From: a virus
Taxonomy: Duplodnaviria; Heunggongvirae; Uroviricota; Caudoviricetes
IMG/VR virus record: IMGVR_UViG_2734482790_000004
Length of the DNA stretch: 64,000 nt
Reading direction: 5' to 3' (one strand)
Shown: piece by piece, positions 46,525-58,517 of the stretch
Position numbering within the stretch: the stretch's first letter is position 1
How the letters are laid out: each line of letters starts with the position of its first letter
Translations under genes and position numbers: made by a program
Notes under the pieces: model-generated
What the model was told of the DNA's origin: nothing
Database searches by the model: none
The model's input: only the letters and a program-made list of their open reading frames with translations

Positions 46525-46533
46525 GGGAATTGA

Positions 46534-46644
46534 ATGCCAACTGAATATGCTCGCGACAACCTTGGTCGCTATCAGACCGATGGATTAAGTGCAAAAGACT
46601 TTAACAAGGTCTTCGATCTTATCCGTAAGGAGGGGCTGAGATAA
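46534..46644 (+). CDS. small ORF (36 aa) with AGGGA RBS
   Basis: Below the ORF-track cutoff; at the proposed inversion junction. Confidence 0.25.
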   Translation: MPTEYARDNLGRYQTDGLSAKDFNKVFDLIRKEGLR

Positions 46645-46667
46645 AAACCGATAATTCGGCACCAACT

Positions 46668-47831
46668 TTGACATGTAACCATGAAGCACCAATTGTATTG
46701 CTCGGCGACGGTAGAATGCGCCGTCTTACCCCTGTCGAATGTGAAAGGCTGCAAGGTTTTCCTGATGGACATACATTGATCCCTACGGAAAAGCGTAAAA
46801 AAGTTTCTTCAGATGAACTGGCATACCTTCGCAAAAACTCTCCTGATTTGAACGAAGAAGAGGCTGCAATGCTTGCAGCTGACGGACCGCGTTACAAAGC
46901 GATCGGCAATAGTATGGCGATACCAGTAATGCGCTGGATTGGCGAGCGGATAACCAAGGCTGCATGTCGGCAGAATGAAGGGCGTGAAACAAAAGAGCGA
47001 AAAGTTAAACCAGCGGCAGAATTCGAACGGTCCATATTCAAATGGGCTGGTGGAAAATTTGGTGTTCTGGAACAAATCTTTCGCTATTTGCCAGAAGGGA
47101 AGCGCCTGATTGAACCTTTCGTCGGTGGTGGAGCTGTCTTCATGAATGCCGGATACCAGGAAAATCTGCTAAATGATGTGAATGCTGACCTGATTAACTT
47201 TTACAAGACTCTGCAACGCGAGGCGCATTCACTTATCACTCTGGCACATCGGTTCTTCCAGGACTACAACACCCAGGAGGGATTCCTGGCAGTACGGAAT
47301 GCGTTTAACAAACAAGTCTATGATGATTTACATCGCGCAGCGGCGTTTTTGTTCCTGAACCGACATTGTTTTAACGGATTGACGCGTTACAACCAGGCCG
47401 GTGAGTTCAATGTCGGTTATGGGAAGTATAAAACTCCGTATTTCCCATTACAGGAGATGGAAGCCTTCCTCGGTGCGGAAGGGCGTTCTGAGTTTGTATG
47501 TGGTGATTTTGCTGCGGTGATTGAAGCTGCCGGAGAAGGAGATGTCATCTTTTGCGATCCGCCGTATGAACCGCTCCCAAATACAGAGGGATTCACGAAC
47601 TATTCCGGTCATGACTTTAAGTTTGAAGAGCAAAAACGCCTGGCGTCTCTGTTGACGGATGCTCATCGCCGAGGTGCAAAGGTTCTCATTACTAACAGTG
47701 GCGCGCCAAACATCAGAGAACTTTATCAGGACAGTGGCTTCAGAGTGGAACCTCTTTTTGCCAGACGTTCTGTGTCTTGTAAGGGGGACACTCGAGGTGT
47801 TGCTCATGACGTTATAGCAATATTGCTATAA
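46668..47831 (+). CDS. dmt: 3' portion of split dmt: C5-cytosine MTase motifs IX-X fused to a complete Dam-like N6-adenine MTase domain
   Basis: RRLTPVECERLQGFPD and YKAIGNSMAIPV (C5 motifs IX and X) followed by FKWAGGK and DPPY (Dam motifs I and IV); motifs I-VIII are absent from this ORF. Confidence 0.7.
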   Translation: MTCNHEAPIVLLGDGRMRRLTPVECERLQGFPDGHTLIPTEKRKKVSSDELAYLRKNSPDLNEEEAAMLAADGPRYKAIGNSMAIPVMRWIGERITKAACRQNEGRETKERKVKPAAEFERSIFKWAGGKFGVLEQIFRYLPEGKRLIEPFVGGGAVFMNAGYQENLLNDVNADLINFYKTLQREAHSLITLAHRFFQDYNTQEGFLAVRNAFNKQVYDDLHRAAAFLFLNRHCFNGLTRYNQAGEFNVGYGKYKTPYFPLQEMEAFLGAEGRSEFVCGDFAAVIEAAGEGDVIFCDPPYEPLPNTEGFTNYSGHDFKFEEQKRLASLLTDAHRRGAKVLITNSGAPNIRELYQDSGFRVEPLFARRSVSCKGDTRGVAHDVIAILL

Positions 47832-47838
47832 TAAATTT
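47822..47838 (+). promoter_or_regulatory. C1 operator-like site overlapping a 16-bp perfect palindrome at the dmt 3' end
   Basis: ATTGCTATAATAAATTT (16/17); overlaps ATAGCAATATTGCTAT. Confidence 0.45.
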
Positions 47839-55878: not shown

Positions 55879-56575
55879 AGGCGCGTGAAGGCACGCAATA
55901 AAACAAACTGCCTACCCTGGCAGTGCCGTAATTGAATATTTTATGGATGTACCAGAAGCGGCGAATGGTTGTGCCGTCTGACAGCTGTTCCAGCCATTCG
56001 AGCATAGAACCCACTGGCACATTGACGGCGGCTAACCGAAGGATTAAAGCACTGTCGCTAATTCCCGTATTATCACTGCCGTCGTATAGCGCGTAGAAGG
56101 CGTCCATCTCATCCGGGCAGTCGAGGGCCGTTATCAGTTCTGGATCCTGATAGTCATATATGCGTTGGTTCGGTTCTATTATTTCAGATGCCGTTTCAGG
56201 TGCATTTTTGTCTCTGTAAGGTATTGCGCGATACAGAACTGCATCGAATGAGTCAGGGTCTAGCTTGATTGCTTTGAGCCAGTCCATCCGCACAAGGTTA
56301 TTAAAAACTGCATGACCTTGATAACGGTGGCGCACACCAGAATCACTAAGCAGGCCGTGATCCAGATTGGGAAGGTGATTGTCCTCCACAGGATCAACAA
56401 TATTACCAACGTTAACACCATCGGTTTCGATTTCAGCATCAATATCTTCCTCTTCAATCAGTTCAGAACCTTCGCCTGGAATATCCGGATCCGATTCGGT
56501 GTCCGGGAGGTTATCACCAGTCACTTGTTGTGATGGTTCTGTGTCCTCAAACATGTCATCAAAGAAACCTGCCAT
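55847..56575 (-). CDS. acidic hypothetical protein (242 aa)
   Basis: D/E-rich N-terminal half; operon context. Confidence 0.4.
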
Positions 56576-56578
56576 CGA

Positions 56579-57649
56579 TTATCCTTTCCGTTTACGGGCT
56601 TCGTTAATTTGCGTCTCAAGAATGCTTCGCGCCTGCGCGGTGGCAGCGGCCTTGTCCATTCCCTGACTCATGAAAAACTTTATGAGGTTGTTAGCCTGCG
56701 TTTGCAGGGCTTTTTTGAGGGCGTCGGCTTCAGCGCGAGCCTGGGCTTCCCTCACCCGCGATGCTTTTAGTTCGGCATTCTTCCTGTTTGCCGTGGTGCG
56801 AGCTTTTTTTAACAACCGGCGAACGTTGTCCGTGGCGCTATCTTTGGCGCGTAGTTTTTTGCCTAATGCATCCTGAGATTTCAGATATAACTCATACTCA
56901 CGCGCCGCTTTAGCCTGATCCGTCGTTGTTGTCCGGTTGCGTGCGAGTGATTTAGCCAGTTCGCCTTTGAAATAGGTTGTTGTCTTCCGCTTGTCATCGC
57001 CGAAGGCCACCTGTTCAGCTGCTTTTTCCAGGGCAATAATGATGGCCTTGTGCCATGTGGGAGATTGAAAACGCGTCATAGCGTGCAACACATGTTTGCA
57101 GGCTACACCAGTCAGATCAGGGTTGCGGATCTTGGGGAATGCATACTCTTTTGGCGGCGCGACAGCATAGTTACCAGCCGTGGCCATATAACGATACCAG
57201 TATTGATGGCGTCCACAATCACAGTCGAAAGATACCCGGCCCTTGCAGAGATCGGCAGCGATTCGGGCTTTTTTCGCACCGTCTTCAGCAATTTCCTCAA
57301 CGGCTTTATCCCATTCCTCAAATCGAATTCTGACACGGTGATGCTGGTGGACCGACTCATCCGAGGCATTAACAGATATCAATGCAAGGTTGTGTTTTAG
57401 CCCGAGGAATGTCGCGGCTTTGATCCCTGTGCCATCAGAAACTTTGTTGTTAGCGCGTTTTATATCAATGCTGGTGGACTGCGCCACCAGCTGAGCATAG
57501 GTAATGCCGGGTACCGTGCTCTTGAATTTGGTTTTATGAGCCTGCCTTGAGGTGTTGAAACTGCGTATATCTTCGGGCGTAAAGTAGGTGCCATCTTTCT
57601 TTTTCCCAAGGCTGAGGAATGCCTCAAGTTCGCGGTTACGCATCCCCAT
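56579..57649 (-). CDS. hypothetical protein with SWIM-like zinc finger (likely start [11 protein letters not shown] at 57649; ORF track start 57721)
   Basis: CxC ... CxH pattern (FDCDCGRHQYW ... CKHVLHAM); AAGGA RBS before Met25. Confidence 0.45.
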   Translation of the reverse strand: MGMRNRELEAFLSLGKKKDGTYFTPEDIRSFNTSRQAHKTKFKSTVPGITYAQLVAQSTSIDIKRANNKVSDGTGIKAATFLGLKHNLALISVNASDESVHQHHRVRIRFEEWDKAVEEIAEDGAKKARIAADLCKGRVSFDCDCGRHQYWYRYMATAGNYAVAPPKEYAFPKIRNPDLTGVACKHVLHAMTRFQSPTWHKAIIIALEKAAEQVAFGDDKRKTTTYFKGELAKSLARNRTTTTDQAKAAREYELYLKSQDALGKKLRAKDSATDNVRRLLKKARTTANRKNAELKASRVREAQARAEADALKKALQTQANNLIKFFMSQGMDKAAATAQARSILETQINEARKRKG

Positions 57650-58517
57650 AATCCTTGGGGTGAGTGTACGCCGCGCGTTTCGCCGATTCTGACGCTGCTG
57701 TTTGCCCATGTGCCATGGCAACTATGTTTGTATCATCGCAAGATCTGATAGCGATGTCTGAAGTATATCTGGTAGTTTCCTTCCCCTCGCCTCTGCTCGG
57801 CGCAATATTCCGGCGCACGCCTTCGAACTCAAAAAGTACCGTTGCGGGATCGAGGTCTGTTCGAGCACTTGCGACAACAAACACGCGTCGGCGTCGTTGT
57901 GCCACTCCGAAGTATTGGGCATCAAGGATTCTCCAGGCCACCTTTCGCTGCGGTCCATAAATACAACCACACTGCGGCCACTTTGGAACATGGCAACCGG
58001 TTTTGCCATCCCACCGCCAGAACGCGTTGCTTTTTCCTGATTCAGGTCGATCACCTGGTTCAAATGGCACATCTTCTCCAGCCAATCCAGCAAGGAAACA
58101 TCCGAAGGCGTTATCTGCCGATGACAAGACTCCTGGGACATTTTCCCAGACGATAACGGCTGGTTTGAGAAATGACTCAGCCCGTTTGTCGTCAATTGCA
58201 TTTGCAAGCTCCACATACTTTAAAGTTAGCGCGCCACGCTCATCATCAAGCCCACCACGTAATCCCGCGATACTGAATGCCTGACAAGGTGTTCCCCCGA
58301 CGAGCACATCAGGGGATTCGATTTCCCCAGCCAGGACTTTTTTGGCAAGTTTTGTCATGTCGCCAAGGTTGGCGACATGGGGCCAGCGGTGCGCAAGAAC
58401 GGCAGATGGAAAAGACTCGATTTCAGCAAACCACACCGGACGCATACCCAACGGTTCCCAGGCAATACTCGCGGCTTCAATTCCACTGCAAACAGATCCA
58501 TAGCACAGCTCTTTCAC
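57636..58517 (-). CDS. dmt: 5' portion of split dmt: C5-cytosine MTase motifs I-VIII only (293 aa)
   Basis: [12 protein letters not shown] (motif IV), VIVWENVPG (VI), QRRRRVFVV (VIII); lacks motifs IX and X, which are found on the opposite strand at 46668. Confidence 0.7.

Follow-up and report, generated by a model that had tools for sequence, protein, structure and literature searches.

The 64,000-nucleotide stretch of DNA analysed here (the window; IMG/VR record IMGVR_UViG_2734482790_000004, Caudoviricetes) belongs to a P1-like element in which the methyltransferase gene dmt is found in two pieces on opposite strands, raising the question of how the gene came apart and what this has meant for it and its neighbors. 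An original prediction, made from the sequence alone, had proposed that open reading frames (ORFs) at 57636-58517 on the minus strand and 46668-47831 on the plus strand are halves of a single dmt separated by an inverted segment of about 11 kb, and had offered three options: a real rearrangement, an unrecognised invertible segment or an assembly artefact. Our analysis bears out the first of these. The element very probably carries a single, recent, fixed and conservative non-homologous inversion that arose in a lineage of P1-derived plasmids, where it has been tolerated and clonally inherited, and that broke tail gene 25 together with dmt.

Geometry and breakpoints of the inversion

Megablast comparison with phage records aligned window 46.7-57.7 kb in one orientation to P1, P7 and their relatives, and both of its flanks in the opposite orientation. 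The breakpoints were mapped on an intact relative, plasmid p12579_1 of E. coli O55:H7 (NC_017653.1, hereafter L003), to which the window aligns in three collinear, gap-free blocks:

43330-46628, matching L003 28374 to 25076, reverse complement
46627-57703, matching L003 14001 to 25077, plus strand, 99.57% identity
57702-64000, matching L003 14002 to 7704, reverse complement

Relative to intact P1-like elements, window 46627-57703 is inverted. The inversion is exactly reciprocal and spans 11,077 bp, with zero bases gained or lost in the BLAST alignment to L003, and both the overlaps between blocks and the comparison of parental with junction sequences yield an overlap of exactly 2 bp at each junction. 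The crossover dinucleotides and the segment between them are the following:

46627-46628, left crossover dinucleotide AA, common to both parental sites
57702-57703, right crossover dinucleotide TT
46629-57701, inverted segment, containing the 3' part of dmt, tRNA-Asn, tRNA-Thr, an SPFH gene, tRNA(CAT), ban, dbn, genes 5, 6, 24 and 7, and gene 25 minus codons 1-31

The breakpoints could hence be aligned to the nucleotide, and the predicted inverted segment of about 11 kb was upheld, but its proposed ends at 46525 and 57720 were displaced to the true junctions at 46627/46628 and 57702/57703. Because no base was gained or lost, both parental sites can be fully reconstructed from the two junctions. 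One breakpoint falls between C5 motifs VIII and IX of dmt, at codon 271/272 of 672, and the other within codon 32 of the 405 codons of tail gene 25, so that the prediction of a split dmt holds, but not its assumption that only dmt had been cut. No inverted repeat with arms at 46.6 and 57.7 kb was found. Both junctions consist purely of P1 sequence to the base, with no foreign or insertion sequence (IS) DNA at either, and IS-mediated inversion was rejected on these grounds.

The sharing of only AA/TT between the parental sites, together with the retention of every parental base, points to a single conservative non-homologous inversion. Such an event would have required two double-strand exchanges, one in dmt after codon 271 and one in codon 32 of gene 25, and would represent an illegitimate inversion, attributable neither to homologous recombination nor to a programmed switch.

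The two pieces of dmt

The ORF listing places the minus-strand dmt ORF (293 amino acids, aa) and the plus-strand ORF (387 aa) exactly where they had been predicted. With the breakpoints defined, the two pieces of the gene are:

57636-58517, minus strand, N-terminal 271 codons of dmt (C5 motifs I-VIII and proximal variable region) plus 22 out-of-frame gene 25 codons
46629-47831, plus strand, the final 401 codons of dmt, which cover the distal part of the variable region, C5 motifs IX and X and an entire Dam domain of the D12 N6-adenine class

When rejoined in silico, these pieces yield a 672-aa ORF without stops that shows 0 amino acid differences and 1 synonymous base change with respect to Dmt of L003, where dmt is a single 672-aa ORF located right after the rdgC-like hrdC (P1 Dmt has 754 aa). 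No further mutations were detected in either half. The Pfam content of the two pieces is complementary. The minus-strand piece matches the C5-cytosine methylase profile PF00145 over profile positions 5-119 and a further stretch, and the plus-strand piece matches positions 271-298 of 324 of the same profile, followed by a complete PF02086 domain (Dam, D12 class; E = 4e-58, profile positions 1-243 of 253) with its DPPY motif, in agreement with intact Dmt proteins, which present PF00145 N-terminally and PF02086 C-terminally. Along the rejoined protein, motifs I, IV, VI and VIII lie at aa 10, 75, 124 and 207, motifs IX and X at aa 303 and 363, and the Dam DPPY motif at aa 582. The two ORFs are thus halves of one dmt and not unrelated genes, and the P1-like references do not harbor an intact C5 methylase devoid of motifs IX and X. 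Reverting the inversion, moreover, restores the P1 gene order hrdC-dmt-tRNAs-ban-dbn, as judged from the L003 alignment and the P1 annotation, and returns the 125-aa gene at 46147, which corresponds to P1 gene 26, to the front of the tail operon, both as originally proposed.

The window gene therefore matches the bifunctional (C5 plus N6-adenine) Dmt of P1 and P7 in gene identity, neighbors, promoter, operator and PF00145 + PF02086 architecture. It differs in that the single continuous ORF found behind hrdC under Pdmt/Odmt in P1 is here broken after codon 271, with the remainder 11 kb away on the opposite strand. The cut falls in the variable region of the C5-cytosine methylase domain, which is most likely dead, and residual C5 activity from the split gene, while possible, is unlikely. 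The complete Dam domain survives within a 371-aa ORF (46716-47831) that opens with an ATG, starts at motif IX and is the likely stand-alone product of the plus-strand piece. In P1, dmt is required for pac cutting solely in Dam- hosts (PMC12707154), and its loss should consequently be cheap in E. coli.

Three other P1-like elements (L022, L024 and L027), whose dmt gene is located near locus position 18.4-20.7 kb, encode Dmt variants of 1029-1095 aa with Hint_2 and LAGLIDADG_3 Pfam matches between two PF00145 stretches; in these variants the C5-methylase domain apparently harbors an intein with a homing endonuclease.

Truncation of gene 25 and rewiring of two operons

The second breakpoint separates the start of gene 25 from the rest of the gene and alters the operons on both sides of the inverted segment, a rewiring that the original prediction had overlooked. 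The relevant features are:

46058-46117, plus strand, operator O26 and late promoter LP26 (exact P1 matches: O26, 17 nucleotides at 46058; LP26, 19 nucleotides at 46099)
46147-46524, plus strand, gene 26 (P1 baseplate), intact ORF of 125 aa identified from the P1 annotation
46534-46644, plus strand, gene 25 stub of 36 aa: codons 1-31, junction codon AAG and 4 foreign codons
46801-46819, plus strand, exact 19-nucleotide match to the predicted P7 late promoter LPdam2, inside the dmt fragment and upstream of the Dam domain
56579-57701, minus strand, gene 25 minus its first 31 codons, labeled 'phage tail protein, missing N-terminus' by the Prokaryotic Genome Annotation Pipeline (PGAP)
58514-59784, minus strand, hrdC (58514-59419), uhr (59412-59696) and Pdmt/Odmt (59739-59784; exact P1 matches)

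The gene 26/25 region presents 99.4% DNA identity to P1 77974-78302. The first 31 codons of gene 25 (46534-46626) directly follow gene 26 and run into dmt sequence, generating a stub, found at the left junction only, that reads MPTEYARDNLGRYQTDGLSAKDFNKVFDLIRKEGLR before its stop where parental gp25 reads ...DLIRKQQRQ...; the 293-aa dmt' ORF, conversely, exists at the right junction only. Rejoined, gp25 is an intact protein of 405 aa with 1 amino acid difference from L003, and the P1 annotation describes this 405-aa product as involved in 'tail stability'. The likely residual ORF of gene 25 spans 56579-57643 (354 aa), starting at Met52 (ATG at 57643) and sharing 8 nt with the end of the dmt' ORF, and this 354-aa gene is also called in other contigs carrying the inversion. 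With gene 25 truncated, an essential virion gene has probably been inactivated within the window.

Since dmt and gene 25 belong to convergent operons, the inversion swapped the tails of these operons and left each piece co-directional with a promoter. O26 is a C1 operator, and Pdmt is an early, C1-controlled promoter. On this arrangement, the Pdmt operon is predicted to read uhr-hrdC-dmt'-25' (without residues 1-51)-7-24-6-5, and transcription from LP26 would now pass through gene 26, the 36-aa stub and the remainder of dmt and on towards the tRNAs, ban and dbn. We infer these consequences for expression, as well as the neutrality of the inversion, from sequence.

In one carrier (L011/L033, run SRR31273685), hrdC (about 58514-59419 in the window) is represented by two ORFs of 98 and 154 aa with one alignment gap, a probable frameshift that would amount to further decay of the Pdmt operon. 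Within the inverted segment, the tRNA at window 50661-50736 is identified by ARAGORN as tRNA-Met (CAT) and by the P1 and PGAP annotations as tRNA-Ile2 (ileX-like, with a lysidine-modified CAT anticodon).

Occurrence and inheritance of the junctions

Of the records matching the junction queries, no phage record (0 of 18) and no PLSDB plasmid (0 of 515) spanned either junction, and one of 504 matching complete E. coli genomes did, that of strain GmM062, on plasmid unnamed2 (NZ_JCANKX010000003.1; L007). An exact search with 30 nucleotides of the left junction returned 0 matches in GTDB species representatives, JGI metagenome contigs and IMG/VR. All other carriers were found solely through exact look-up of the junction ORFs, which located the 293-aa dmt' on 51 contigs and the 36-aa stub on 57, with the 371-aa Dam fragment called on 47 contigs (63, 71 and 60 index blocks, respectively). 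The contigs bearing these three ORFs derive from NCBI, Logan and ENA and, for two of the three, also from JGI. The carrier loci that were retrieved come from a dozen different sequencing runs, with Logan providing de Bruijn contigs, and from one ENA metagenome assembly made with MEGAHIT; they are 99.97-100% identical to the window, and several single contigs span both junctions. Carrier runs include SRR15140853, ERR2909817 and SRR9172038. Among the carrier contigs compared, every junction retained is in a single orientation, and none is canonical.

By comparison, 26,870 index blocks list the identical gp7 protein. The other gp7 neighborhoods examined were canonical in all ten cases, with an intact 405-aa gp25 and full-length Dmt, and a structural-variant search through gp7 returned only canonical neighborhoods from non-carriers. 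The inversion lineage is rare among P1-like elements. The lack of secondary mutations in the two halves and the near-identity of the carriers indicate that the inversion is recent. Our literature search found no paper describing this inversion and no publication on strain GmM062.

In the record of the GmM062 sister plasmid, PGAP labels the two dmt pieces 'DNA cytosine methyltransferase, missing C-terminus' and 'DNA adenine methylase, missing N-terminus'. Annotators should be aware that, together with the gene 25 remnant, these three 'partial' pseudogenes, which PGAP left unlinked, are two genes broken by one event. The junction sequences, in turn, mark the lineage exactly and can serve to follow this plasmid through E. 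coli surveillance data.

Secondary deletions in carrier contigs

Carrier contigs related to the window present further deletions of 2-13 kb in and around the inverted segment. Five of the six secondary deletions identified, each an independent event, join at TA, with a 2-bp overlap that in one instance extends to 5 bp (TAACC). In window coordinates, these deletions, observed in loci L010, L011/L015/L033, L012/L032 and L016, are:

44865-57511, TA-type deletion
46956-55253, TA-type deletion
46344-52699, TA-type deletion
48741-50833, TA-type deletion
55256-59304, TA-type deletion

All nine distinct endpoints read TA(N)CC, five of them preceded by GG in a GGTA(N)CC-like site, and the site at 55254 was used twice, from opposite sides. 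Under random microhomology, the probability of five out of five joints at TA is about 5e-7. Several candidate specificities were considered for this motif and rejected, since none fits all nine sites: a spliceosome-like motif, IS1-like ends, IS608 (TTAC), IS5 (YTAR), IS630 (CTAG) and the restriction sites of KpnI and BstEII. To our knowledge, the TA-junction motif matches no known transposase, recombinase or restriction specificity. Our guess is that the TA deletions were made by a recombinase, nuclease or transposase cutting with a 2-bp stagger. If they do reflect a specific enzyme, they would constitute a more interesting lead than the inversion itself.

The sixth deletion (L034, run ERR8574388) lies between 13-nucleotide imperfect direct repeats, CGGGGCTTGCTAC and CGGGGCTTGATAC, at window 49225-49237 and 51582-51594, and takes out tRNA(CAT) and the SPFH gene together with the N-terminus of ban. 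In contrast to the TA class, it is an ordinary short-homology deletion.

Alternative explanations for the inversion

Four points weigh against the interpretation of the locus as a tolerated, non-homologous inversion in a plasmid lineage. A serine recombinase, or another enzyme cutting with a 2-bp stagger, would leave the same trace, namely a conservative exchange with an overlap of exactly 2 bp. A 2-bp microhomology is unremarkable by chance, with deletions simulated over the region giving a probability of about 0.16 for at least 2 bp. The loss of C5 activity, the use of the 371-aa and 354-aa ORFs and the neutrality of the inversion are predicted from sequence. Lastly, the loss of a block of tail genes, described below, is seen in the GmM062 plasmid, and that region falls outside the window.

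The first of these points invites an explanation in terms of a one-off error, in which a site-specific enzyme that cuts with a 2-bp stagger acted at two degenerate sites with an AA core. Candidates would be a Din-family invertase acting before the loss of cin, some other serine recombinase, or the activity behind the TA deletions. The conservative exchange and its exact 2-bp overlap are what such an error would leave, and the five of six lineage deletions that join at TA in GGTA(N)CC-like sites suggest that some sequence-selective cutting or joining activity has been at work. The crossover core of Cin is TT/AA, as in the window, which made an event at quasi-cix sites worth testing; the use of such sites by Cin is known. 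Both parental sites were compared with the four cix half-sites annotated in P1, and all positions with an AA/TT core served as background. The two sites matched at 2+4 and 2+1 of 12+12 positions, placing them at the 30th and 87th percentile of that background, and Cin acting on quasi-cix sites was rejected. A Tn3-type resolvase was likewise discarded, the best ungapped match of either parental site to the plasmid res region (10-11 of 16 positions) equaling that of shuffled controls. Cre acting at pseudo-lox sites was also rejected. Cre requires a matching spacer of 6-8 bp, a match that is impossible here with only 2 bp shared, and the loxP site of the element is found elsewhere (27094-27127).

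The flanks of the inversion thus match neither cix, res nor GGTA(N)CC, and their core is AA, not TA. Furthermore, quasi-site events usually pair a good site with a poor one, and here both are poor, while a 2-bp overlap is expected by chance in roughly one event in six. We therefore consider an enzymatic error unlikely. A broader version would tie the inversion and the TA deletions to a single activity, which may act in this lineage or its hosts by 2-bp-stagger cutting or exchange at degenerate GGTA(N)CC-like sites, dismantling the prophage; the inversion sites, with their AA core, do not fit that motif. That one activity underlies both, or else that the dmt fragments form a working two-part methylase, strikes us as doubtful.

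Taken by itself, the latter proposition concerns the fate of dmt after the inversion, and holds that its N- and C-terminal fragments assemble in trans and that the gene has been rewired instead of inactivated. The gene is interrupted in the variable region that separates motifs VIII and IX, leaving motifs I-VIII and IX-X on separate ORFs of 293 and 371 aa. This is the arrangement of M.AquI, a natural two-subunit C5 methyltransferase divided in its variable region, and it is shared by other split C5 methyltransferases, such as M.EcoHK31I and fragments of M.SssI; fragments of M.SssI, M.HhaI and other enzymes complement in vivo (PMC3404938). Both dmt fragments, in addition, have open frames, upstream promoters and no further mutations. 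However, 31 residues separate the break from motif IX, placing it within the distal two-thirds of the variable region, and M.SssI pairs split so far distally are inactive or barely active (PMC3404938). The N-terminal fragment carries a foreign tail of 22 aa and is served by an early promoter, while the C-terminal fragment lies 11 kb away on the other strand behind a late one. M.AquI subunits are adjacent, co-expressed and of proven activity; the window pieces are accidental, distant and differently controlled. Some carriers have deleted the C-terminal fragment, which is therefore dispensable, and even for intact P1 Dmt the P1 annotation credits C5 activity only with a 'perhaps'. An active split methylase is, on balance, distinctly improbable.

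A programmed invertible segment that toggles dmt and the tail operon is highly improbable. P1 does possess such a system elsewhere, the Cin/cix inversion of the C segment by a Din-family serine invertase, and the window event resembles it in being an inversion in P1 with a 2-bp crossover and a TT/AA core. It differs in that the window ends lack both cix-like half-sites and terminal inverted repeats, and in that a single orientation is found among the carriers examined and the other one in all ten non-carrier neighborhoods. While Cin/cix inversion swaps alternative gene ends, the inversion in the window destroys genes, truncating both here and providing no alternative product in either orientation. 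Comparison of the P1 cin region with the window produced a match only for P1 29,500-30,506, the first 1,007 nucleotides compared, which lie upstream of cin, and the GmM062 plasmid contains neither cin nor its enhancer.

Finally, that the junctions are an artefact of one mis-assembled record, as their presence in a single complete genome, their absence from the phage and PLSDB records and the lack of publications on GmM062 might suggest, is hardly credible given that the junction-only ORFs recur without a single difference on 51-57 contigs produced by many independent runs and pipelines, that a second mosaic plasmid carries the same junctions, that single short-read contigs span both of them, that no end repeat could have misled an assembler and that their reciprocity is exact to the base, unlike that of chimeric reads.

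We thus favor an ordinary one-off structural mutation over a switch. The non-homologous inversion would be a mark of one clonal lineage of P1-derived plasmids, and it is a new instance of a familiar type of event.

Mosaic structure and decay into a plasmid

The window and the GmM062 plasmid have both junctions in common and show a single base difference across window 1-5371 and 27094-64000. The intervening 21.7-kb tract (window 5372-27093) presents 1-2% divergence with indels, amounting to about 510 differences, which means that at least two distinct mosaic plasmids carry both junctions. The last difference in the tract, base 27093, adjoins a perfect loxP at window 27094-27127, suggesting a Cre-lox exchange between two P1-like plasmids, and the second end looks as if it had been resolved by homologous recombination near 5.4 kb.

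The GmM062 plasmid lacks P1 31,245-47,903, a block that includes lydC, cin, the C segment, S, U, R, 16, bplA, pmgA, sit, pmgB, tub, pmgC and simC/B, and with it the functions of tail fibers, baseplate, sit and tube. The replacement cargo (L007 14179-26487 and 27510-36002) comprises an IS5-family element (ISKpn26), O-antigen-type glycosyltransferase and methyltransferase genes and an IS1 (IS1B), with an arsRDABC operon and a Tn3-family transposon with its resolvase near the lost block. A repA-like initiator and parA/parB are found near the locus, both in the GmM062 record and in carriers. The GmM062 plasmid is a defective phage living as a plasmid, a state that had also escaped the original prediction.

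P1-like phage-plasmids are known to become plasmids through gene loss (Pfeifer and Rocha 2024, PMC10879196). The lineage studied here follows that description in keeping the P1 replication and partition backbone, in having its tail genes lost or broken and in gaining cargo (IS, ars/Tn3 and glycosyltransferases). It departs from it in that the published account deals with gene loss and exchange; the word 'inversion' has 0 occurrences there, and no event of this sort breaking two genes together was found in it. In the lineage at hand, one inversion would have disabled a tail gene and a methylase together, with assorted deletions following, and thereby illustrates one route by which a phage-plasmid may decay into a plasmid. 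Such an inversion could be tolerated because members of the GmM062 type live as plasmids and the Dam of E. coli would make the phage methylase dispensable.

Two smaller features of the window were also recorded. Its first 3,009 positions (window 1-3009) lie in a Tn3-family tnpA, inside which the window starts. Position 40591 is A in the window but C in the GmM062 record and in each of the seven carrier loci that extend over it; this synonymous change, in a gene for a HAD/PNKP-type phosphatase, is confined to the window's molecule.

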